Assembly: GCA_030390025.1 (NCBI GenBank)
Contig: CM059431.1
Coordinates: forward strand, 119,352,001-119,416,000
Length of the DNA stretch: 64,000 nt
DNA from: Squalus acanthias
Taxonomy: Eukaryota
Direction of reading: 5' to 3'
A program made the position numbers and the translations under genes. Positions 9,565 through 64,000 of this stretch are shown piece after piece. Position 1 is the first letter of the stretch, and every line of letters starts with the position of its first letter. Under the pieces are notes generated by a model. The model worked only from the letters and a program-made list of their open reading frames with translations, did not search any database and was not told the origin of the DNA.

Positions 9565-10642
9565 GCTGATGTAATAGATGGCAGGTCAAGTAGAGATCAG
9601 AGGAGCAATCTGTCAATGTTGTGATAGTTACTAGCAATGTGGTGAGAATGGCTTCCGAGGTTGCAGAAAAGACTTGCAAACTCTAGATACCTAAATCTGT
9701 GTTCAAAATGCACTCAGCAAAAACCTTTCCCATAGGCAGGTAAGCAGGTATCACGTGGGAGTTTTTATTGGGATATCCATGCTCTGCATTAATGACCTCG
9801 ATCAATGGCCACTGAGATTCCACCTCAGGTTGACAGACGTGGTTTTCCAGTCTGCGTGATTCCCGCGGTCATCCAGTGAACTTCAAAATGTCTGGTTAAA
9901 ATCTCTGTTAAGGGTCTGACAACAAGGATTTATTGAGCTTAATTAGGTCGCCCACCTCTGCCGTTCGGGTCTGTGGCACGCTGGCAAACGCGCCCAAGTT
10001 AAAGACGCGAGGGGGCGGGATGACGGAGCGTTCCCGACGTTCTCCCATTTTCTGCTACTTTTACTGCTGATCCATCTCCAAACCCGCACACACGGCACCA
10101 GGAAAATTTCGGCCAAGGAGTGTGATAAGTTAAAATGTTTATTAAAACCAGCATCAATGCATAAAGGCAGGACAGGGTCTATTGCCCACTTAAACATTCT
10201 ATACTCAACTCACGTAGCATAAGAAATAAAACAAGTGAATTAGTTTTTAGCCCTCCAGATAGCAGTGATAAAATAGTGTTATACATAAACGCAGAGATCA
10301 GAGAAGCTTGTCGCAAAAACAAAGTCATTAATGACTTTAATTTTCACGTATACTGGGAGAAGCAGAACAGCTCGGGTCCCAAAGGCAGCAAATTTCTTGA
10401 GTGTATTCGGGACATCTGTCATTAGTTAGACCTGCCCTGGCATGTTTAGGTTTTCAAATTTTTTGCGTGGCAAGTTGCTGAAAGTGCGAGCTGATAACAT
10501 TACACCGAGAGGGAAACAGGGCATCTGGGACCAGAGTGAACAGAGCAAGAAACTGTGTATCTGCTTAACCAATTAGATTGAAGGATTGTGAAATTAACAG
10601 CGTGAGGACTGAGAAGGAAGTGAAAATTAGAGTGGGTGAATG

Positions 10643-12265
10643 TGTAAGGGATCCTCTCCTGACCCTGCGTGTCTCGTAGCCTGTGAGGTTCACGCGGCTC
10701 TGTGCAGCCTGTATGTCAGTGCGGGTCTAGGCCTGGTCTCCAGCCAGTCTGGGAACACTAGACACCCCTGTGAGTGGTTCGAATCACTCTCCCTTACGGT
10801 TCTAGACACTGGACTTAGATGCGAGAGCAGTAATGGAGATAAAACTCATGTAGACTTGGTTTGAACGGTACGAAATGGAAAATCTTTATTGCATGATACT
10901 TAAAATTATGAAATACATGTCATATGCACAGATTAATGACAGTACAATCTTACAAACAGTTATAATCACTCTTAGGGAAACGAGGAACGACCGGCACAAC
11001 GTAAATAGGGCACACATTACAAATATCCTTAATCTTTAAACCCTCCCCTATCAATAACTATCCTAAAACTAGCTTCGTAGGATCCCGAGACTCATGCTCA
11101 CCACTCGTAATAACTCGGAGAAATCCCGAATAGCTGATCGGATGTTTTTCACCGCAGCACCCACGTGTTGGTCAGGAGATCTCCTGGTCCCACTTGTTTA
11201 CTGCTTCTGCTGCTCGGTCAGTCGGCTGGACCGTCCGCTGTAGTGAAGACCTCTGTTGGTTGGATACAGGGTATGGTGGAGCACCGTTGTCAATATCGCT
11301 GATACGATGTGTTTGCACAGTCCAGTTATCATTGATGCAATATGTCTTGTTAAAGAAGAAAACTTCCTGTCGAGAAGACTTGGCTGATCGACCTACAGGC
11401 GCGGTCGGGATTTACTGACCGTGGCGATGGATAAGGTCTTCTTCTCTTCTCCTCTCATCTCATCTCATCTCATCTCATCTCATCCCGGGCCTTCGGTTCA
11501 GCTGCCAGCTACCAACATAGGTCTTTGCAACAGTCTTTTACCCAGGAGCAGCCACGAGGTTACGAATCGACCGGATAAAACACAGGAGCAGCCACGATGA
11601 TAACAGCAGCAAGCGGCAAGAGTCAAGAGCAAAAGAGCAAGAGAGCGAATGGACGGTTTGGGCCTGCAATTATAGTGCACAGTTCTTCCGTTTCCCGCCC
11701 AACTACAATGTCCATTCTTTTGTTTAAGGTTTGGCGCCCAAAAATGTCCTGTATGGGTGATCTCTGTCCTTAATGGGTTTCGGGGCTACTCCTGAATGTT
11801 TGAGTACCTGTTAATATTTCTCCCATTGTTAAATCGGTCGGTGTTCCCCCTGGAGGGGTTTGGGGCTTCCAAGTGTCCTGTATACCTACCTGCTAACGGC
11901 TCTCTCATCGTAGAGCCGTTGGGAGTTTACATATTAATGTCCTTTGGATGGGCCCTTGATGGCTTTCCTTTGTACCTGGGAGACCGATCCCAGTATCGAT
12001 GTTTATACTGTAAACCCATAATGTCCTGTGTATTGTCTTCACTGTGCTGAATCGTTATCGATCCTGCAAAAATGTTTATTGGAACGCCATCTTGTCTGCC
12101 TGCTGAAAAGTCTCGAATGTTCTGTCACGCGGTGCGGCGGCCATTTTACAGGCTGCTTGTGTCCAATTTAAACCTGACAGCATTCCGCTGAAATAAAAGC
12201 TGTTTTGAACGAAACTTGTGTTTTCTCCTTATAAAAATGAAATCGCGATAATTGCGAATTCTACA
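10643..12265 (-). repeat. 3' LTR
   Basis: Direct repeat of 18307-19929; AATAAA on minus strand at 10885-10890. Confidence 0.97.
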
Positions 12266-12277
12266 GTCCCTCCTGTT
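12266..12277 (-). promoter_or_regulatory. Polypurine tract
   Basis: Minus-strand AACAGGAGGGAC abuts the TG of the 3' LTR; short and impure. Confidence 0.7.
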
Positions 12278-12693
12278 GATGCGAATAACTCCGCTTATCG
12301 TATCAAAAAATCTCAGTGGTGAGCAATCTTATCTCGATTTCACTCCGAATCCAGTAAATTAATCCCATAAAATTTTAACTTCACTAGGGTCTCTGTGTCG
12401 TCCTCATTTCCCAAGAAAAAATCACATTTTATATCACCGTAGGCATCATTTGCCCTTAAACTTACACCACTTGTTTTCCTTCCCGGCGTAACCAGGCCGA
12501 TACCTCACGCATCACCTGTATATTTGTCTTTTATTCAAGGGAAGGAAAAACAAAACCCAAAAAACCGAACAATCAACACCATCACCAAAATAAACAAATC
12601 CCGACTCTTAAACATGTCGAGTTTCCAACGTATTTACAATGAGTACAAACTTCCGCGGCGCACGTGGCGAGCGGGAGTGACGCCATTTTCCCA

Positions 12694-15045
12694 TTACACT
12701 GCGCTCTCATCGTGCACGCGCACGTAACGTTCTCGCCACTCTCCCGTGTTCTCATGCTTGGTGAGGCGCTTGTCTCTTTTACAATGTATGAACAAAAGGT
12801 ATACTACAATAAACACTTGACAGACGACTAAAATGTGGGAGGCTATTCTGACCCATGAGGGCACTTCAATATTCGTGAACAGATTCCACCACGGTGGAAC
12901 CACTATGTCCAAAATGTCTGTACCTATCTCGACGGTTTTCTGTTCTAATGTATAGAAATGCTTTTGTGACACCGCGACGGCTTTTAGAAGTTTGGTTAAA
13001 TGCTCGGGGAGAGGGGGAATGAGGTACCCAAAATGTGCGACAAATCGCTGCAAGTCGGTAAAATTCTCTTTTACTGTGAGATGAACAGTGGATGGTTCAG
13101 GGATTGGGATAATTCGCTGTTGTGCTACTTGAACTTCAGCCCTGGGTTTAAAACAGAAACTGCTGTCACTCACCGGATACCGGCTACGGTTTCCATGCTG
13201 GTAGTGTTGCGCTGCAGTGGTAACACAATATGTTCCACCCCCGATGTATGCTACCTGCGGAGGCACATGATCTTGTGCCATTGCCTCCATGGTGCAATTC
13301 ATGGACTTGGCGCCAGCCGTTCTGAACCCGCACTGTGGTGTTAAAAAGGCATTCAAGTGCTGGGGGCACAGTATTATGTGTGCTCCCCTGCCACGACAAC
13401 CAGAGAGATCTGTACCTGTCATCGTTTGCTCCCAGCGGATGACGTAAGGTGGAACTGCTGCATAATGAATGTGGGCTCCCCCCTGAATGACACCAATGTT
13501 CTCTACCCGATACACCGGGGCGGGCTTTGCTGTGTTGCCCAAAACCGGCATGCGTAAAACTATACCCATAATGGTATGGTTTGAACGTCCGCAGTCCACG
13601 GGGACTGGGTAAGCTTCTGAAGCTAGCCTGAGCTGGCACGGACTTAATGCGTTCTGAAAAGGGTGGAGCGCCCGCAGGTGTTTGTTACTTATCCAGGACG
13701 GAACCAAACCTTGTTTTAAATCCTCCAAATTACTGCGGCCCTCGCCCAGTAACCACGCCCCGTAAAGCACGCACACCTCGTTCTGCGCAGCTTGATCGGA
13801 TGCATTCCGATCTTCCCTAATCAGGGCATTTACCGTACGCGCATGTTTCTCCAGCTCTGCTATAATCTCTTTTAAGTGTAGTGTCATGGCTTGGTCCTCG
13901 TGCAGACCCGACCCTACCACTTTATTCTCATCTGTAAGAATATCCTTTAACTGTGTTTTTAAACCATTAATCTGGGTCTGCAGCTCCACACTGTCTAGAG
14001 CGTTGACCACAGATGTCCCTGTGTTAAAAGCAGTGAACGCATCGTTCACCAAACCCCTTCTTTGCCTCCCTACTTGGTCCAAAACTTCCTGCGGTGCGGT
14101 GTATAAACTTGTCTTATCGATTTCTGCAAAATCAAATTCGTAAAATTGCCTGAACATCTTGGTCAACAGGATCTGGTACAACTGTTCCGTCTTTTTGGGG
14201 CACCACTCTGGTAACCGTACCTCAGTGAGATTTAAAATCACCGAGGCCACCGCGTAATGTACCCCCTGAAATAGTATCTGGTCTGTGGGGACCAGTACCA
14301 AACCGTTCCCGGGTCCCTTACTAGTTTTAGGGCACCCTTCTTCCTCAGTTAGAACTACCGGAATCGTGGGCGGGGCTTTGCGTGGGCGCGTAATGAGCTC
14401 AGTGGCATTTACTGGGATCGGAGAGTATGGGGCTCCGCACCCCCTGGTGCTCGCATCCCACCTCATCCCCTGTCCGTTATCCTGCCACTGGTTAATAAAG
14501 AATATGGAGATGCCTTTGGGGCAAACGTACTTTGACCCCCACATACAAACATAAATCCCCTCATCTGGTTCCCACCATTTGTCCCAACAGACTTTCACTT
14601 GTCCATCTGTCCCCGTAATTGTCCGATGGGTATTATTACCCAGTCGCTCCCACTCAACCGAAGAGTTCCTCATAGTTTTGCTCAGCTTTCGCAGCCACCA
14701 CCATCGGCTCAATGGGACATTCCCACTGCAGGTCAAACAAATCCGTTTGCCGACGGTGACGCTGATCCTGGGTGCGATGATCCGTACTTTGGGGCACATT
14801 AAAGAAGTCTCTTTGTAGGCGAACCCCGATGTGCTGGAATACTCCGTTGAGTTCGTTCCCAGCCATCCTGGCCACCTTCCCTTGTGGAAATAGGTGCTGG
14901 TCCCTTCTGCCTTCCGTCTTCCGGTCCCATCCACCGCGATGGGGGCCGTGTCCCCGGAACATCCAAACACCACGACATCCTTGGTGAGGCCCCGATAGGC
15001 CAATCCACATCCGATTGCCACGAGCAAAACTAGAAGTCGTTCCAT
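12694..15045 (-). CDS. env: Envelope glycoprotein, class I F-like fusogen with N-terminal Ig-like domain (783 aa)
   Basis: Signal peptide, N-glycan sequons, furin site RQRR (aa 327-330) followed by fusion peptide GLVNDAFTAF.., heptad region, Cys-rich domain, TM aa ~734-753, 30-aa tail; open frame. Confidence 0.9.
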   Translation of the reverse strand: MERLLVLLVAIGCGLAYRGLTKDVVVFGCSGDTAPIAVDGTGRRKAEGTSTYFHKGRWPGWLGTNSTEYSSTSGFAYKETSLMCPKVRIIAPRISVTVGKRICLTCSGNVPLSRWWWLRKLSKTMRNSSVEWERLGNNTHRTITGTDGQVKVCWDKWWEPDEGIYVCMWGSKYVCPKGISIFFINQWQDNGQGMRWDASTRGCGAPYSPIPVNATELITRPRKAPPTIPVVLTEEEGCPKTSKGPGNGLVLVPTDQILFQGVHYAVASVILNLTEVRLPEWCPKKTEQLYQILLTKMFRQFYEFDFAEIDKTSLYTAPQEVLDQVGRQRRGLVNDAFTAFNTGTSVVNALDSVELQTQINGLKTQLKDILTDENKVVGSGLHEDQAMTLHLKEIIAELEKHARTVNALIREDRNASDQAAQNEVCVLYGAWLLGEGRSNLEDLKQGLVPSWISNKHLRALHPFQNALSPCQLRLASEAYPVPVDCGRSNHTIMGIVLRMPVLGNTAKPAPVYRVENIGVIQGGAHIHYAAVPPYVIRWEQTMTGTDLSGCRGRGAHIILCPQHLNAFLTPQCGFRTAGAKSMNCTMEAMAQDHVPPQVAYIGGGTYCVTTAAQHYQHGNRSRYPVSDSSFCFKPRAEVQVAQQRIIPIPEPSTVHLTVKENFTDLQRFVAHFGYLIPPLPEHLTKLLKAVAVSQKHFYTLEQKTVEIGTDILDIVVPPWWNLFTNIEVPSWVRIASHILVVCQVFIVVYLLFIHCKRDKRLTKHENTGEWRERYVRVHDESAV

Positions 15046-15329
15046 CCTTCCTTGGTTCCTGTGATCAGATAGAATGAGGTAGCCAGCCTCGCAAAAAGTC
15101 TCTGGCTTTTGTGAAGGGTGAGCGGGTCCCCTGACCTCGCCTCACGTAAACTTCAACGTTTGCTAAATAGACTTCCTCTAAACCTAGCCTTAAAACTCCC
15201 ATCATTTTATCGTTATCTGTTAAAAACACTACAAACTTAACCTTATTAAAACTACTTAAAACTTTAAACTAAAACTTAAAACCTTAAACTAATAACTTTA
15301 CAATGCCGCCCGTTCTCAGGGCGGCCCCT

Positions 15330-16490
15330 TTAAATCCTGAGAAGGCTGCTGCGAGCTCTTCCCGACGGTGGGAGGGCACTGACCCTTCCCTCTGATCTGC
15401 CGCAGCCTGTTGCTGCGCTGACCCTTTCCTCTGATCTGCCGCAGCCTGTTACTGCTTCGATGTGGCCTGTCTCTACCCGGGTTATCTTAACCTGAAACTT
15501 ACGCCCTGGGGCAGCCTGTGGACCTGACCACATCTTCCTGGGCTGGGGTACTCTGCTTGACCTACGGGGAATTGCTATGGGCGGGGGCTCCGTGACGGAC
15601 GGACCGGGTCCCGAGACCTTCAACGGGATGACCTGGGGTTCCATCACAGGCGCCAGCCCCGCCTCCGCTGACTCCGCCTCCCTAACCTCGGGGCTGGCAG
15701 TTCGGGGCCCCGCCCTGCTCGGCCCAGCAGGCGGCCCTTCACTCGCGAACTCTGCCTCCCCTGAGGACTGGACGTTCAAAGCGGGCGGCCACACCTCTGG
15801 GAACCACATAGCGGCTGGCCCGGCCTCCTCTAGCTCCTTCCTCCTGCTGTCGGGACCTGCAGCTTGTGTGTCCACCCCGTATGGATCTCTACCTAGCGGC
15901 CCCAATCCTTCCAGACCGTTCCTCTGAAACCACCCGTCATCATCACTATGCTCATCTGCACTATCCTCATCTGACCAGGGTACCCTGGGGTCCTCGTCAT
16001 CTAACCCCCAACTCCAGAAAAACGCTGCATGATCGTCCGGGATGTCCCTTCCCCTGATGCAAGCTGCTACGCCTGCCGGTGTGCCTTGTGGTCCTACCTG
16101 GGGCTGTGTTTTCCCACTCGCAGGTCTGGCCCCTCCCTTAAGACAGGCCACCGCCCCTGCTTGTTTCTGTGAAATCTCACCTGCTGGAGGCTGCAGATTT
16201 CTATCCTGTTTTAAATCCTTATACTCCCTGCTCCTGGCTACCCTGTAGGCTGCTTTTATCTCTCTAAGCTGCCCTTCTAGCCTGAGCACGTCTAACTTTC
16301 CCATTGATCGGGCGTTCTCCTCCCGCAGGGTCTGCTCTCTAAGCTGCCCTTCCAGCCCATCTATTTTCCCTATTAAGCGGGCGTTCTCCTCCCGCAAGGC
16401 CTGCTCTTTTAACCTGGCCTCCTCACCGCAGACCCCCTCCTGTGCGTGTCTTTTAAAAGGACACAGGTAGGCAGGCTGCGTGGACTCTAG
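15330..16490 (-). CDS. Non-Pol ORF in frame with gag (putative readthrough extension, ~386 aa; coiled-coil plus low-complexity)
   Basis: Frame is open from 16490, directly after the gag UGA, through ORF 15330..16397; the track start is a TTG, and the first in-frame ATG lies further downstream. Confidence 0.7.
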   Translation of the reverse strand, partial: LESTQPAYLCPFKRHAQEGVCGEEARLKEQALREENARLIGKIDGLEGQLREQTLREENARSMGKLDVLRLEGQLREIKAAYRVARSREYKDLKQDRNLQPPAGEISQKQAGAVACLKGGARPASGKTQPQVGPQGTPAGVAACIRGRDIPDDHAAFFWSWGLDDEDPRVPWSDEDSADEHSDDDGWFQRNGLEGLGPLGRDPYGVDTQAAGPDSRRKELEEAGPAAMWFPEVWPPALNVQSSGEAEFASEGPPAGPSRAGPRTASPEVREAESAEAGLAPVMEPQVIPLKVSGPGPSVTEPPPIAIPRRSSRVPQPRKMWSGPQAAPGRKFQVKITRVETGHIEAVTGCGRSEERVSAATGCGRSEGRVSALPPSGRARSSLLRI

Positions 16491-18302
16491 TCATGGGGCA
16501 CTATTAGACGGTCCTGCGGCACCTACGGGGCCGGTTGCGACCGCCACCTGTCCACGCGCATTCAAAACCATCTTGCGCATGACTCCTAACACTGCTTCGA
16601 GGTCTTCAGGAGAGGTGGGTGCCTTTGCTTCCTTAGCCGGGACAGGCGCCTGGGTTCGGACCGCGGGATTTTTATCCTTGGAATCCTTCCAAGGGTTCCT
16701 GCAGTGCTTGCGCCAGTGCCCTGTCTTCCCACACCCGTAACAGGCATTACTTGCCTGTGGGGCGCGATTACCCTCCTGATGCCACTCTCTTTGAGTCGGG
16801 GCTGCGGGTCGTACCTCATGTACTCTTCCCTTAAAGGGACGTGTCGTCATACCCCTTATGTTACGGTAACCTAACGTGAGTCGATTCAAGACCGACTCTT
16901 CCGTAAGGTTGAGGTCATTGGGATCGAACCAGGCTTTTGCCTGCTCTCTAACGGCTGGTAAACTGTTGGCTATTATGCACCTAAGCCAATGAATTAAAGC
17001 GGCGCCTTCCACATCTTCGCGTTCGGGCGCACCTAGACAGCTGCGCTCATATACTGGCCACAGCCTGTCGGCAAAAACCTTCGGGGGTTCTCCCTCCATC
17101 TGCACTGTCTGTCCCACTCTAGCAAACGGACCTCCGTCGTTCGCTCCCACTACTTCTAGGACCTCATTTTTCAATTCCTCATAACTTTTATTACCCCTCT
17201 TGCTATCGCCTGAGAGACACTGAAGGACCGAGCTATCTAAAGAGAACAGCAGCATTTTTGCTGTCTCCCCATCATCGCAGCCGTTGATGGCTGCGGCTTG
17301 CTCAACTTCCCTAAAATGTACGGAAGGGTCGTCTATCTCGGTCAGCTTCCTTACGTGGTTTATCATGGCCCTCAGCTGATGTGAACTGTGAGGCAACACC
17401 AGCTGTCCGAGGAGATCCCCCGGTTCTTCCCCACCGTTTCTGCTTGGGCCCCTTTTAATCCCCGTTACTGGATACAACGATCCCTTTTCTACTTCCTTTT
17501 CAACGGGCTCTTTTGTTTCTTCCGTTGCTTCCTCCCTAACCCAGGTTTCTGAATAGCTGGGTGGCGCGGAGGGCGCAGTGGCTACTACTTCTTCTGCTTT
17601 ACTTGGTGGGGAATTTCTAAATCTCTCATTTACTAGCGGCTGGCGTGCCGACGGATTAATAAGGCACACCATGCCGTTCGCATTATTCACGGCCTTTTTG
17701 AGGCTCTCTATCTCTTTTTCGCAGGCGCTATGGTCGGCTCCCTGAAACTTATCCTCAAGGGCCAACTTATACGCCGACCTAACCCCCATTAAGCTCTCTT
17801 CTTGAGTTCTTATCTGGGCAGCTTGACGGTTACATCTTTCCTTCATCCTACTCTCGTTTAATTTTGCTTCAGTGATCTGGCACTCGAGATACTCTACCCT
17901 TGTTTTAAGGTAGCTGGAGACTTCCTGGCTTTCCTGGCGTAACTCATTTAAACTCTTAATGAGCGCCTCCCCTCCAGAAACCTTCTCCTCCATTTCCTCC
18001 TCTAGATGCTTGATTCGAGCGGTTAGCGCTGTATTGGTCTGGTTTGAAATCTGAACCTGCCTTTTGTAGCACATAAGCCAGACTGCTTTCTCAACTGCCT
18101 TTTTATGCTCCTTACTATCCGTCCACCTTTCAGCTGCCTCTAGTGGGCTCTTATCCGCTAACAATTCGCTTATCCACTTTTTCGTTAGATTAACCTTTCC
18201 AAACACGTAATCCGCTATCTTTTCCTGCATAACATTTCGTACAGTCATTCCAAAATCTAACACACTACCCTCTCGCTGCCAGCCTCGTGCCGCGGTCGCC
18301 AT
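16491..18302 (-). CDS. gag: Gag polyprotein with long coiled coil, late domains, CA and CCHC zinc knuckle (603 aa)
   Basis: CYGCGKTGHWRKHC knuckle (16701-16742), MHR-like QMEGEPPKVFADRL, PSAPPSY motif. Confidence 0.92.
   Translation of the reverse strand: MATAARGWQREGSVLDFGMTVRNVMQEKIADYVFGKVNLTKKWISELLADKSPLEAAERWTDSKEHKKAVEKAVWLMCYKRQVQISNQTNTALTARIKHLEEEMEEKVSGGEALIKSLNELRQESQEVSSYLKTRVEYLECQITEAKLNESRMKERCNRQAAQIRTQEESLMGVRSAYKLALEDKFQGADHSACEKEIESLKKAVNNANGMVCLINPSARQPLVNERFRNSPPSKAEEVVATAPSAPPSYSETWVREEATEETKEPVEKEVEKGSLYPVTGIKRGPSRNGGEEPGDLLGQLVLPHSSHQLRAMINHVRKLTEIDDPSVHFREVEQAAAINGCDDGETAKMLLFSLDSSVLQCLSGDSKRGNKSYEELKNEVLEVVGANDGGPFARVGQTVQMEGEPPKVFADRLWPVYERSCLGAPEREDVEGAALIHWLRCIIANSLPAVREQAKAWFDPNDLNLTEESVLNRLTLGYRNIRGMTTRPFKGRVHEVRPAAPTQREWHQEGNRAPQASNACYGCGKTGHWRKHCRNPWKDSKDKNPAVRTQAPVPAKEAKAPTSPEDLEAVLGVMRKMVLNARGQVAVATGPVGAAGPSNSAP
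18288..18301 (-). promoter_or_regulatory. Primer-binding site, tRNA-Arg(UCG)-like
   Basis: TGGCGACCGCGGCA begins 5 nt after the 5' LTR and is complementary to the recalled vertebrate tRNA-Arg(TCG) 3' end ...TGCCGCGGTCG-CCA. Confidence 0.75.
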
Positions 18303-18306
18303 TTTC

Positions 18307-19929
18307 TGTAAGGGATCCTCTCCTGACCCTGCGTGTCTCGTAGCCTGTGAGGTTCACGCGGCTCTGTGCAGCCTGTATGTCAGTGCGGGTCTAGGCCTGG
18401 TCTCCAGCCAGTCTGGGAACACTAGACACCCCTGTGAGTGGTTCGAATCACTCTCCCTTACGGTTCTAGACACTGGACTTAGATGCGAGAGCAGTAATGG
18501 AGATAAAACTCATGTAGACTTGGTTTGAACGGTACGAAATGGAAAATCTTTATTGCATGATACTTAAAATTATGAAATACATGTCATATGCACAGATTAA
18601 TGACAGTACAATCTTACAAACAGTTATAATCACTCTTAGGGAAACGAGGAACGACCGGCACAACGTAAATAGGGCACACATTACAAATATCCTTAATCTT
18701 TAAACCCTCCCCTATCAATAACTATCCTAAAACTAGCTTCGTAGGATCCCGAGACTCATGCTCACCACTCGTAATAACTCGGAGAAATCCCGAATAGCTG
18801 ATCGGATGTTTTTCACCGCAGCACCCACGTGTTGGTCAGGAGATCTCCTGGTCCCACTTGTTTACTGCTTCTGCTGCTCGGTCAGTCGGCTGGACCGTCC
18901 GCTGTAGTGAAGACCTCTGTTGGTTGGATACAGGGTATGGTGGAGCACCGTTGTCAATATCGCTGATACGATGTGTTTGCACAGTCCAGTTATCATTGAT
19001 GCAATATGTCTTGTTAAAGAAGAAAACTTCCTGTCGAGAAGACTTGGCTGATCGACCTACAGGCGCGGTCGGGATTTACTGACCGTGGCGATGGATAAGG
19101 TCTTCTTCTCTTCTCCTCTCATCTCATCTCATCTCATCTCATCTCATCCCGGGCCTTCGGTTCAGCTGCCAGCTACCAACATAGGTCTTTGCAACAGTCT
19201 TTTACCCAGGAGCAGCCACGAGGTTACGAATCGACCGGATAAAACACAGGAGCAGCCACGATGATAACAGCAGCAAGCGGCAAGAGTCAAGAGCAAAAGA
19301 GCAAGAGAGCGAATGGACGGTTTGGGCCTGCAATTATAGTGCACAGTTCTTCCGTTTCCCGCCCAACTACAATGTCCATTCTTTTGTTTAAGGTTTGGCG
19401 CCCAAAAATGTCCTGTATGGGTGATCTCTGTCCTTAATGGGTTTCGGGGCTACTCCTGAATGTTTGAGTACCTGTTAATATTTCTCCCATTGTTAAATCG
19501 GTCGGTGTTCCCCCTGGAGGGGTTTGGGGCTTCCAAGTGTCCTGTATACCTACCTGCTAACGGCTCTCTCATCGTAGAGCCGTTGGGAGTTTACATATTA
19601 ATGTCCTTTGGATGGGCCCTTGATGGCTTTCCTTTGTACCTGGGAGACCGATCCCAGTATCGATGTTTATACTGTAAACCCATAATGTCCTGTGTATTGT
19701 CTTCACTGTGCTGAATCGTTATCGATCCTGCAAAAATGTTTATTGGAACGCCATCTTGTCTGCCTGCTGAAAAGTCTCGAATGTTCTGTCACGCGGTGCG
19801 GCGGCCATTTTACAGGCTGCTTGTGTCCAATTTAAACCTGACAGCATTCCGCTGAAATAAAAGCTGTTTTGAACGAAACTTGTGTTTTCTCCTTATAAAA
19901 ATGAAATCGCGATAATTGCGAATTCTACA
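18307..19929 (-). repeat. 5' LTR
   Basis: Direct repeat of 10643-12265; TATA-like 19334-19338, splice donor at 18765, AATAAA 18549-18554 (all minus strand). Confidence 0.97.
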
Positions 19930-20782
19930 AATGCAATGTCAAATCAGCTACAGAAAGAGAAATAAAGAAAGGGAAAGAAAGACTGGATTATGAGAGAAAA
20001 AGAGGCAAAGGAAAAGGGAAAAAATTAAAATTTGCCTTTTTTAAATCTCCAATAGTTAAAACCTGAAGGAATGAGACTTCACACTTGTAATAGTTAATTT
20101 TCAGTGCAAGAGAGGTTGATTGGCAGTAATTAACACATCATGTCATTAAAAGGGTACGTAGACTGAAATGGACAAGACTTAACTTTCTGTGGCGAGTTTA
20201 GTTCATATCTACGCACGAATACAGCAACTTTATGTAATTCAATGCATTTCATTGGTGAGGCAGATGGCAACATGCCATTTTCATGAATCTAATGATGGAG
20301 CAGCGCATGTCGGACAGCAAGTTTTGGATATTTGAGTTTAACCGCGCATCTGCCCCTCGCCTGTAGTTACTGTACCATTTGCGCATAAATAACGGCGAGC
20401 GCCATTAGCTTCACTTTTAAATCAACAGCAAGAAATAAAAGGAGAGAAAGGAACCCTTAATACTACAAAACTTTTCATTTTAACCAGCATTTTAATAGGA
20501 AATCAGACAAAACTTGCTGGGAAAAGCCCTCCATAGGGACACAACCAGGGGAGGGAATATAGATAGAAGGGAACAGTCAGGACTGGGAACAGTCCAAACA
20601 TAGGCACAGAGTCTGGGGACGGGAATATGGATAGAAGGGAACAGTCAAAGTTGGGAACAGCCCCTTGAGATGGACAGAGCCATCCATACAGGGGGATTGT
20701 AAATAGGTGAACAGTCCCATTGAGTAATCTCAGCCCAGCACATCACGGGGAGTCCTGGGTGTCCCTATTCACCACTGTGACC

Positions 20783-22039: not shown

Positions 22040-23616
22040 TGTAAGGGGTCACGGTACTGGTGCGAGGTGAGGCCTTCGTTGCCTATACTATTGCTTGCTC
22101 TGGTCTCCGGCCAGACTTTTGCAAAAAGCACCTGTGAGTGGTTCGACCCACTCGCCCTTACGGTTCTGACACATGGACTTAGATGCAAGGAGCAGTAATG
22201 CAGAGAAAAGACTCAAATAGACCCGGTTGAATAGCACAAAATGAATATCTTTATTGCATGGCGTCTAAAATCATGAAATACATGTCATAGGCGCAGATCA
22301 AAGAGAGTACAAGTATACACACGTTCATAAAACTTGGTCTATGGAAATGGGGAACACACGACACATCGTAAAAGGGGGAACACATTATACATTAACCTCA
22401 GAAAACCACCCTCCCTTAATATACCTAAACTACGTCTGGATTTGTAGGATCGGAAAACATGCTCACCACTCGGCTCACTTCGGAAATTTAAAGTGAGGCA
22501 CTCAGCTCGTTTTGCTGCAGCGCCTGACTGTCACGTGGTTGTAAGGGTTTCTGCACCCCACTTGTTTACTCTCGCTGCCGCGAAAGGTAAGCCAGATTCC
22601 CTGATGTCATGAAGTGGTCGATGGATTCAGACCGGATCGTGCAGTAGTCCATAGAATTCAAAGAAAACGGTTCATGTAGTAGTCTGTAGAATTTAAAGAT
22701 GGATTCTGTCGTTATATCTTCGGGCGCGGTCGGGGTTTACTGACTGTGGCGGCACGTGGAATTTCTTCTCGTCTTTCTTCTCGTCTTTCTTCTGGTTGCT
22801 CGGGCCTCTGGGTCCGGACACCGTTTACCGACGCTCGGGATGGTGTACCCTGTTACTTGCCCTGTCGAGGCGGCTCGTTCCGATTGAGCTCCACCCAACA
22901 CTCGAATAACCGACCAGCACGGCGAAGAGTCAAGAGCCAAGAGTCAAGGAAGAGTCCAGGAAGAGAGAGAGAGACCGATGGACATTTGTCCTCTATAGTT
23001 ATACTGTTTTGTCGGCCTTATCTCCCGCTCAAATCTAAATGTTTATTCTTTCTGTGATTTTGGCGCCCAAAACTCCCAGCATGGGGCGATTATCTTCTTA
23101 ACGGGTTTCGGTAACACCTGAAACTGGCCAACTATCCGTTAATACCTTCTCCATTGTTGAGCCAGCCAGGATGTGTATGAATCGTCTCCTCGACTGGTTT
23201 TGGGGACCCCCGAATACTGGCTTAATCACCCGCCAATGTCTCTCTCATTGTTGAGCCGGGGGGATATTTGTGTATTGATGTGTCTGGATGGGTTCTCGAT
23301 GGCCCAGTTCAATGATCCTTACTGTGCGTAGGAAACGATTCCAGCACTTATATCATTGCTATTGTTCAGGATGCAAACGGGTTGCATCCTGCCTTTTCAA
23401 TGTGTACCGAGTATGATCCGATCTCATACTGAATGTATATTCGACGCCATCTTGTCTGCCCACTGTGTCTCTGGAAGCTTCTGCCACGATGCACGGCGGC
23501 CATTTTACAGGCTTCTGTGTCATTTATTATCAGGATAGCATTTTGTTTAATAAAAATGATCAATTGAATCTGCTTCTCTCATGTTATTTGAATCGCGATA
23601 ATTGCAAAACTCTACA
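22040..23616 (-). mobile_element. Solo LTR related to the 10643-19929 element
   Basis: TGTAAGGG...CTACA termini, TSD AAAG on both sides, colinear similarity to the provirus LTR. Confidence 0.92.
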
Positions 23617-62399: not shown

Positions 62400-62536
62400 A
62401 GCCCAGGACAATTCTCCAGTGTTAGCTATGCCCAGATTCATTCCCAGCATTGCCAATGCCCAGGATCATTCCCCAGTGCCCCCAGTGCCCAGGATCATTC
62501 CCCAGTGCTGCCAATGCCCAGGATCATTCCCCAGTA
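62400..62536. repeat. Short tandem repeat (~29-bp unit, GCCCAGGATCATTCCCCAGT core)
   Basis: About 5 degenerate copies directly abutting the truncated LTR. Confidence 0.8.
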
Positions 62537-64000
62537 ATGCAGAGAAAAACTCAAATAGACTCGGTTGAATAGTACGAAATGGAAATCTTTATTGCATGGC
62601 GTCTAAAATCATGAAATACATGTCATAGGCGCAAATCAACGATAGTACAAGTATACATACATTCATAAAGCTTGGTCTGTGGAAATGGAGAACACACGGC
62701 ACATCGTAGAAAGGGGAACATATCTTAACCTTATTAAAACACCCTCCCTTAATAATACCTACACTACGTCTAGATTTGTAGGATCGGAAATCATGCTCAC
62801 CACTCGTTTAATTTCGGAGATTTTAAAGTGAGGCACTCGGCTCGTTTCACTGCAGCGCCTGACTGTCACGTGTTTGGAAGGGTCTCTGCACCCCACTTGT
62901 TTACTTTCGCTGCTGCGAAAAGCAGGCCAGACTCCCTGTTGTCATGAAGAACCCAACGGACCTCAGACACAGTTCAAAGAAGAGTCTTCCTGTGCTCAAT
63001 ACAGGTTGTCGGTAGACTTCAAAGAAAAGTTCTTTATTTATATTTTCGGGGCGCGGTCGGTGCTTACTGACCGTGGCGGCACGTGGATTCTTCTTCTCTT
63101 CTTCTCGTCTCGTCTCGTCTCTTCGGGCCTCCGGGTCCAGACACCGTTTACCGACACTCGTGATGGTGTACCCTGTTACTTGCCCTTGTCGGGGCGGCTC
63201 GTTCCGATTGAGCTCCACCCAACACTTGAATAACCGACCAGTACGGCTAAGAGTCAAGAGTCAGCAAAGTCCAGAGAGAAAATCAAGAGCCCACAAGTCA
63301 AAACGAGTTCATGAAGAGGCAAGCGAATAAGAGCATAAACCCTCAGCAGTCAGCAGCGAGATAAGAGCCAGCCGGGAGAATAAGAGACCGATGGACATTT
63401 GTTCTCTATAGTTATAGTGATGTGTCCTCTTATCTCCCGCTCAAATCTTAATGTTTGTCCTTTGTGTAATATTTGGCGCTCGAAACTCCCAGCATGGGGC
63501 GATTATCTTCTTTAACGGGTTTCGGTAGCACCTGAAACTGGCCAACTATCCGTTAATGTTTTCCCCATTGTTGACCCAGCCAGGATGTGTATGAATCGTC
63601 TCCCTGACTGGTTTTGGGGGCCCCCGAATACCGACTTAATCACCCGTCAATGTCTCTCTCATTGTAGAGCCGGGGGGGTATTTGTGTATTGATGTGTCTG
63701 GATGGGCCTTCGATTGCCCAGTACAATGATCCTTTCTGTGCATAGGAAAACGATTCCAGCACTTATATCTTTGCTATTGTTCCAAATGCAAACGGGTTGC
63801 ATCCTGTCTTTATCAGTGTTTACCGAGTATGATCCAATCTTATACTAAATGTATATTCAACACCATTTTGTCTGCCCACTGTGTCTCTGGAAGCTTCTGC
63901 CATGATGCGCGGTGGCCATTTTACAGGCTTCTGTGTCCTTTATTATAAGGACAGCATTTTGTTTAATAAAGCTGATCACACGAATCTGCTTCTCTTGTGT
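62535..64000 (-). mobile_element. LTR of the 22040-23616 family, U5 end missing, runs off the window
   Basis: Colinear with about 22196-23585. Confidence 0.9.

Follow-up and report, generated by a model that had tools for sequence, protein, structure and literature searches.

A very young member of a pol-less endogenous retrovirus family in Squalus acanthias, probably recombining with near-identical pol-bearing relatives

Structure of the provirus

The window, as we call the whole 64-kb stretch of Squalus acanthias DNA analysed here, carries a provirus whose minus strand reads, in order, primer site, gag, TGA-CTAG, ORF2, env and polypurine tract (Table 1). The LTRs end in TGTA...TACA and are flanked on both sides by the target duplication AATG. 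The two LTRs show 0 differences over their 1,623 bp, the (CTCAT)6 tract included. In all seven paralogous copies of the flanking repeat, the sequences left and right of the insertion point are continuous with each other, and the provirus in the window is therefore a true insertion. An earlier reading made from the sequence alone had proposed a young, intact insertion with LTRs that show no difference by eye, with gag, ORF2 and env all open and with no enzyme motif; on each of these points it is confirmed.

Table 1. Coordinates of the provirus and its parts in the window
Feature	Position	Strand	Remarks
Target-site duplication AATG (left)	10639..10642	.	Flanks contiguous in 7/7 empty paralogous repeat copies
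3' LTR, 1,623 bp, TG...CA	10643..12265	-	Identical to 5' LTR
Polypurine tract	12266..12277	-	Purine-rich, abuts 3' LTR; also present in pol-bearing relatives
env, 783 aa	12694..15045	-	ATG at 15045; signal-like N-terminus, predicted F-type ectodomain, C-terminal membrane helix
ORF2 residues 120-386: Pol C-terminal tail past the integrase GPY motif	15330..16133	-	98% amino acid identity to helper
ORF2 residues 85-119: patch derived from a more distant sister family's pol tail	16134..16238	-	89% identical to L088/L090 over 84 nt
ORF2 residues 11-84: coiled-coil-like filler, pol-less form only	16239..16460	-	Common to aligned pol-less copies
gag stop in TGA-CTAG context and first ~10 pol codons	16461..16493	-	Same junction heads pol in helpers
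gag, 603 aa	16491..18302	-	ATG overlaps primer-binding site; putative N-terminal coiled coil, capsid-like region, one CCHC knuckle
Primer-binding site, tRNA-Arg(TCG) type	18284..18301	-	5 nt from LTR; variant 3' end in window copy
5' LTR, 1,623 bp	18307..19929	-	Identical to 3' LTR
Target-site duplication AATG (right)	19930..19933	.	Matches left duplication

Host tRNA-Arg(TCG) genes match the commonest primer-binding site in the family, which 17 of 20 close copies carry. The variant 3' end seen in the window copy is also found in the other three, and a pattern search found no tRNA gene that fits it. A primer site of a second tRNA-Arg type is carried by two of 20 pol-bearing copies and by one copy without pol (L113). 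The provirus is embedded in a high-copy repeat (10165-10642 and 19930-20330), a reading frame of which we take to resemble a LINE endonuclease. Diverged LTR-related fragments (73-78%) lie elsewhere in the window, at 22131-22472, 23432-23526, 62532-62820, 63050-63124 and 63847-63938. Contig C26 (L143-L153) contains long arrays that repeat in tandem with a period close to 1,623 bp. A unit of these arrays includes tRNA-Arg(TCG) and tRNA-Ser(GCT) genes, and a pattern search gave 426 matches genome-wide. The agreement of this period with the length of the LTR is a coincidence, as the two have no sequence similarity.

Gag and Env

The gag frame runs from an ATG at 18302 to the TGA at 16491. The capsid-like region was recognised by eye, and in a check for an SMC-like gene the Gag N-terminus gave weak Pfam matches to coiled coils (E>0.1). 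Env has an RQRR site at residues 327-330 and a candidate Ig-like domain at about residues 85-175. When a structural model of Env (pLDDT 62) is compared with the PDB by Foldseek, the best matches are paramyxovirus and pneumovirus F proteins (E 2.5e-11). Foldseek matches also include F-type viral proteins, among them walleye epsilonretrovirus Env, and foamy Env. This suggests that Env folds like paramyxovirus F, and bears out the F-like Env that had been proposed from the sequence. SnRV Env is absent among the Env matches listed, and Pfam and PDB sequence searches gave no class assignment for Env or for ORF2. The Pfam family Ig_3 matches Env with an E of 0.02 in the window and of 9e-4 for a relative, neither of which reaches the Pfam cut-off. 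For a model of this region (pLDDT 61) the Foldseek rows listed are Ig-domain chains, none of them at E<=0.001, while VIA-align gives Z scores up to 5.3 to mixed beta-sandwiches. These weak matches point to a probable Ig-like domain at the N-terminus of Env. The distant Env relatives P0036, P0014 and P0021 also apparently begin with an Ig-like region (P0036 by a V-set match with E 0.045, the others by eye). The closest named Gag and Env relatives are from skate and sawshark. Env fragments (P0002, P0003) are also fused into two gene models of sawshark, Niban 1-like and ZFP2-like by name, which are probably annotation chimeras.

Both genes are under purifying selection. The dN/dS ratio among close copies, a comparison that the sequence-only reading had called for, is 0.19 for gag and 0.10 for env; the corresponding values are 0.28 and 0.10 in pol-less copies taken by position, and 0.26 and 0.09 in pol-bearing copies. 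As gag and env are exchanged with helpers (see below), this selection may have acted in the helpers, and it is no proof that the pol-less copies use their own proteins.

ORF2 and the missing enzymes

A six-frame motif scan of the element found no in-frame motif of protease, reverse transcriptase (RT), RNase H or integrase, and all six ORFs scanned are without a match to a Pfam pol family at E<=1. In the place of pol is ORF2 (16490-15330, minus strand, 386 aa), which lies in the frame of gag directly after TGA-CTAG and lacks a start codon near its beginning. UGA-CUAG is a readthrough motif, and the context is kept in 21 of 21 close copies, which suggests that ORF2 would be reached by readthrough of the gag stop. 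The last 267 residues of ORF2 are 98% identical to residues about 1234-1500 of the helper Pol. The patch from the sister family is found in the subfamily of the window copy; in more divergent pol-less copies the filler joins the helper's own integrase end directly. Read in this way, ORF2 is the pol frame itself, in which an in-frame deletion has exchanged about 1,220 codons for about 110. The idea that the pol slot was filled by a different ORF rather than deleted does not hold, since ORF2 consists of the pol start, the filler and the Pol tail; the pol remnants that the same reading had named as evidence against itself are present within 15050-16490.

A gag origin of the coil filler is possible. 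A Gag of the sister family matches the filler weakly (E 7e-4, in a single comparison). ORF2 compared with its own Gag gave no match, and in 81 gag- or pol-bearing loci no match to the filler beats shuffled sequences (best E 0.10; shuffles reached 0.025).

It may be asked whether a functional new gene has replaced pol, with a Gag-ORF2 readthrough protein that drives the success of the lineage, as for the gag-pol fusion of IAP 1-delta-1. Consistent with this, ORF2 is open for at least 360 aa in 18 of 20 pol-less copies taken by position, with lengths of 368-397, and the TGA-CTAG context is conserved. Filler length changes in the rows displayed are all in frame, and an in-frame insertion of 3 bases is found in two public runs; with the filler dN/dS of 0.63 (range 0.49-0.63) they hint, if modestly, that selection keeps the frame open. 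Against this, Pol tail makes up 267 of the 386 residues and pol start about 10, the start codon is lacking, and the filler estimate comes from 74 codons. The tail (dN/dS 0.83-0.91) is near-neutral in both forms, at 0.91 in pol-less and 0.97 in pol-bearing copies. Among close copies the pN/pS of ORF2 is 1.23, and ORF2 as a whole is under little amino acid constraint. We therefore consider a new gene unlikely, if still worth bearing in mind, and prefer to see ORF2 as the remainder of a pol deleted in frame.

Pol-bearing relatives and classification

A distant Gag (P0005) led to a sister family with the order gag-TGA-pol-env. Its Pol comprises protease, RT, tether, RNase H and integrase. Further pol-bearing copies were reached via the integrase region of this family. 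Ten such copies were compared with the element. Over LTR, gag, Pol tail and env, three of them show a nucleotide identity of 96-99%, while for another four the identity is 80-90%. The closest share LTR termini, primer site and polypurine tract with the window element, and pol-bearing relatives have gag-TGA-pol in one frame. A pol-bearing helper with similar LTR ends and primer site, which the sequence-only reading had predicted, does therefore exist, and what the two forms share in sequence favours a dependence on Pol supplied in trans. A 31-mer at the pol start has 1,230 matches in the genome (control 0), a number that spans several subfamilies and may include other deletion forms. In a sample of 20 early pol-start matches on contig C1, from which one match at the contig start and one adjoining another fetched copy were skipped, pol is open for at least 1,490 aa in 14.

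The coiled-coil Gag and F-like Env had suggested a lokiretrovirus. The family shares with lokiretroviruses the dual RNase H in Pol, an F-like Env with a basic cleavage site and a coiled-coil Gag N-terminus, but the RT motif and the tree position of the helper are different (PMC7947760). The helper RT is of the LPQG form. In a block of 47 residues compared by eye with the RT rows of that source, it is identical to SnRV at 36 positions, to Loki-Lch at 25 and to HERV-L at 23 (PMC7947760). In a quick RT tree (44 of 47 rows) the helper is placed among the LPQG-type rows and apart from three rows with the Loki motif, which had been picked by eye on the published motif. Clustering of the RT with lokiretroviruses is thus not seen, and the lokiretrovirus label is withdrawn. 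SnRV uses a tRNA-Arg primer and has gag and pol in frame across a stop; a tRNA-Arg primer and a single gag-TGA-pol frame are both present in this family. We conclude from the by-eye motif count, SnRV itself being outside the tree, that the helper is likely SnRV-like.

Two of the shared features do not discriminate. Pfam RT_RNaseH and RNase_H both match the sister-family Pol, and a dual RNase H is common to all retroviruses and so is not diagnostic of lokiretroviruses. An F-like Env is not diagnostic either, because walleye epsilonretrovirus and foamy Env are also among the F-like matches. An F-type Env together with a coiled-coil Gag is insufficient to identify a lokiretrovirus. The top named integrase matches are auto-named 'NYNRIN-like', and the Loki-motif rows rank lower. 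In Table S2 of PMC7947760, the four cartilaginous-fish genomes looked up appear without the asterisk given to species such as coelacanth, a mark which we understand to denote Loki-positive species. SnRV-like ERVs are already reported for elephant shark (PMC4977317).

Copies of the pol-less form

In the 3.7-Gb genome an exact 32-mer over the gag-ORF2 junction has 896 matches (control 0), and the internal region matches at full length with 99-100% identity in all 25 places scored, the window included. Fifteen of the 20 close copies have a 4-bp duplication of their own, two lie in tandem with one LTR in common, and the remaining three were unparsed. Tandem proviruses are represented by L035/L038, which share the middle LTR, and three junction matches lie about 7.7 kb apart at G000:C1:143657918-143673390. 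The first 20 junction matches on contig C1 were also taken in order of position, not chosen by likeness. Each of them aligns over the pol slot, lacks pol and is 79-99% identical to the window; LTR pairs are at least 99% identical in 16, and gag is open to its stop in 13, broken in four and unmeasured in three. The window copy is thus a very young member of a pol-less ERV family of about 900 copies. This family has what is expected of a non-autonomous ERV: no enzyme coding, many independent integrations, and an autonomous partner with shared cis signals. The further copies with other duplications that the sequence-only reading had proposed to look for are abundant, which supports its stable non-autonomous lineage over a one-off deletion and contradicts a single copy made by local rearrangement.

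Recombination with helpers

We compared the two forms in a gag tree of 45 rows (20 pol-less, 25 pol-bearing) and an env tree of 39 rows (20 pol-less, 19 pol-bearing), both quick searches on position-ordered samples from one contig, with six identity-selected copies excluded. A single pol-less clade is rejected for gag (p-AU 1e-5) and for env (p-AU 7e-37), and the starred branches force at least seven changes of label in the gag tree and at least five in the env tree. The gag tree is ladder-like and spans 20% divergence, with pol-less and pol-bearing copies interleaved along it. Pol-less copies lie up to 0.20 from the window in gag, yet within 0.06 of some pol-bearing copy, and every pol-less copy is nearer to some pol-bearing copy than pol-less copies overall are to one another. 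In addition, the filler and, at both junctions, helper-type loose ends are found in four of four public runs, so that both forms occur under four organism labels, possibly not all distinct species. One junction on many backgrounds implies that the cassette has moved between lineages, and the interleaving of the two forms suggests that one deletion cassette likely keeps recombining with current helpers.

Interleaving might also arise by gene conversion between integrated proviruses rather than by recombination inside particles, as the genome offers some 2,000 similar templates and the tandem proviruses show that ectopic exchange occurs. We think this improbable. Copies on deep rungs of the ladder (86% to the window) have LTR pairs 99.2-99.6% identical and duplications of their own, which fits fresh insertion of genomes that were already recombined, and gag, tail and env are mostly on the same rung. 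A much weaker alternative is that the pol-less copies are repeated, independent, dead-on-arrival deletions of helpers and form no lineage. The lack of a pol-less clade in either tree would agree with this, but one exact junction 32-mer is common to 896 copies, and the filler common to the aligned copies did not turn up in pol-bearing loci, so that this is very unlikely. That the element is an assembly artefact or the product of segmental duplication, as the 100% identity of its two LTRs might suggest and as the sequence-only reading had feared in the form of an assembly collapse, we practically discount, given an empty site in 7/7 paralogous repeats and other copies with different flanks, duplications and LTR variants of their own (the LTR pair of each of the 20 close copies differs by 0-1 substitution, and from the window LTR by about 1-6%).

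Discussion

Our results suggest that the window contains a recent copy of a pol-deleted ERV lineage which is likely co-packaged and recombining with near-identical pol-bearing relatives, a reading to which we assign a probability of roughly 0.87. A single ancestral in-frame deletion would have produced a cassette of pol start, coil filler and Pol tail. The pol-less RNA would be packaged together with the RNA of near-identical pol-bearing relatives, and these would supply protease, reverse transcriptase and integrase in trans. Template switching between co-packaged RNAs is established retroviral biology, and in this way the cassette could receive the LTR, gag and env of the current helper. We infer that template switching is the simplest route for transfer of the cassette, and the supply of Pol in trans would likewise take place through co-packaging. 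The element would still make Gag and Env, together with a minor Gag-ORF2 readthrough product, and the Pol tail may be partly retained because it may contain env splicing signals. More speculatively, the pol-less form could be a long-lived 'allele' of one recombining retrovirus population, its cassette persisting across about 20% gag divergence and several hosts, supplying Gag and an Ig-headed F-type Env, and with a Gag-coil-tail readthrough protein acting in favour of the RNA that encodes it. We hold this to be doubtful; if true, the pol-less form would be a partner in a division of labour and not a mere parasite.

Helper-dependent ERVs are already well known. Mouse IAP 1-delta-1 elements are likewise non-autonomous and very successful, carry a single recurrent internal deletion, in frame, which creates a fusion frame, and depend on full-length relatives for proteins in trans; the fusion is reported to have a function in cis (PMC6466679). 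In IAP env is missing and the deletion extends into gag (PMC6466679), whereas the window element retains gag and env complete and has lost the enzymes only. The C-type and D-type members of bovine ERVK[2-1-LTR] are also autonomous and trans-complemented forms of one active clade, but the bovine D-type is without functional genes, while the dependent form described here has two genes open and one defined deletion cassette (PMC10924933). Zebrafish BHIKHARI elements (Bik-1/Bik-2) are young fish non-autonomous ERVs that have kept a coiled-coil Gag; they are gag-only relatives of lokiretroviruses, unlike the window element, which keeps env and has a likely SnRV-like helper (bioRxiv 10.1101/2024.03.25.586437). 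What is unusual here is that gag and env are both kept and that one cassette is found along the whole ladder of the helper. We found no literature on this ERV family, in a search whose scope left aside most subscription journals, Repbase and bioRxiv supplements.

Most helper-dependent ERVs shed genes, while this family sheds enzymes only. In number the pol-less form (896) comes close to its helper (at most 1,230), and the ladder of both forms, measurable on about 2,000 copies within a single genome, provides a natural record of the co-evolution of defective and competent retroviruses by recombination. Pol-less copies of this kind would escape ERV screens anchored on RT, of which the screen described in PMC10435555 is an example. 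The loss of enzymes seems to have arisen twice, once in the family of the window and once in its sister. The sister family has pol-less forms of its own (L066, L074, L076 and others of L041-L065), with a different remnant, a degraded protease start plus tail, some of them gag-only and some with gag plus env.
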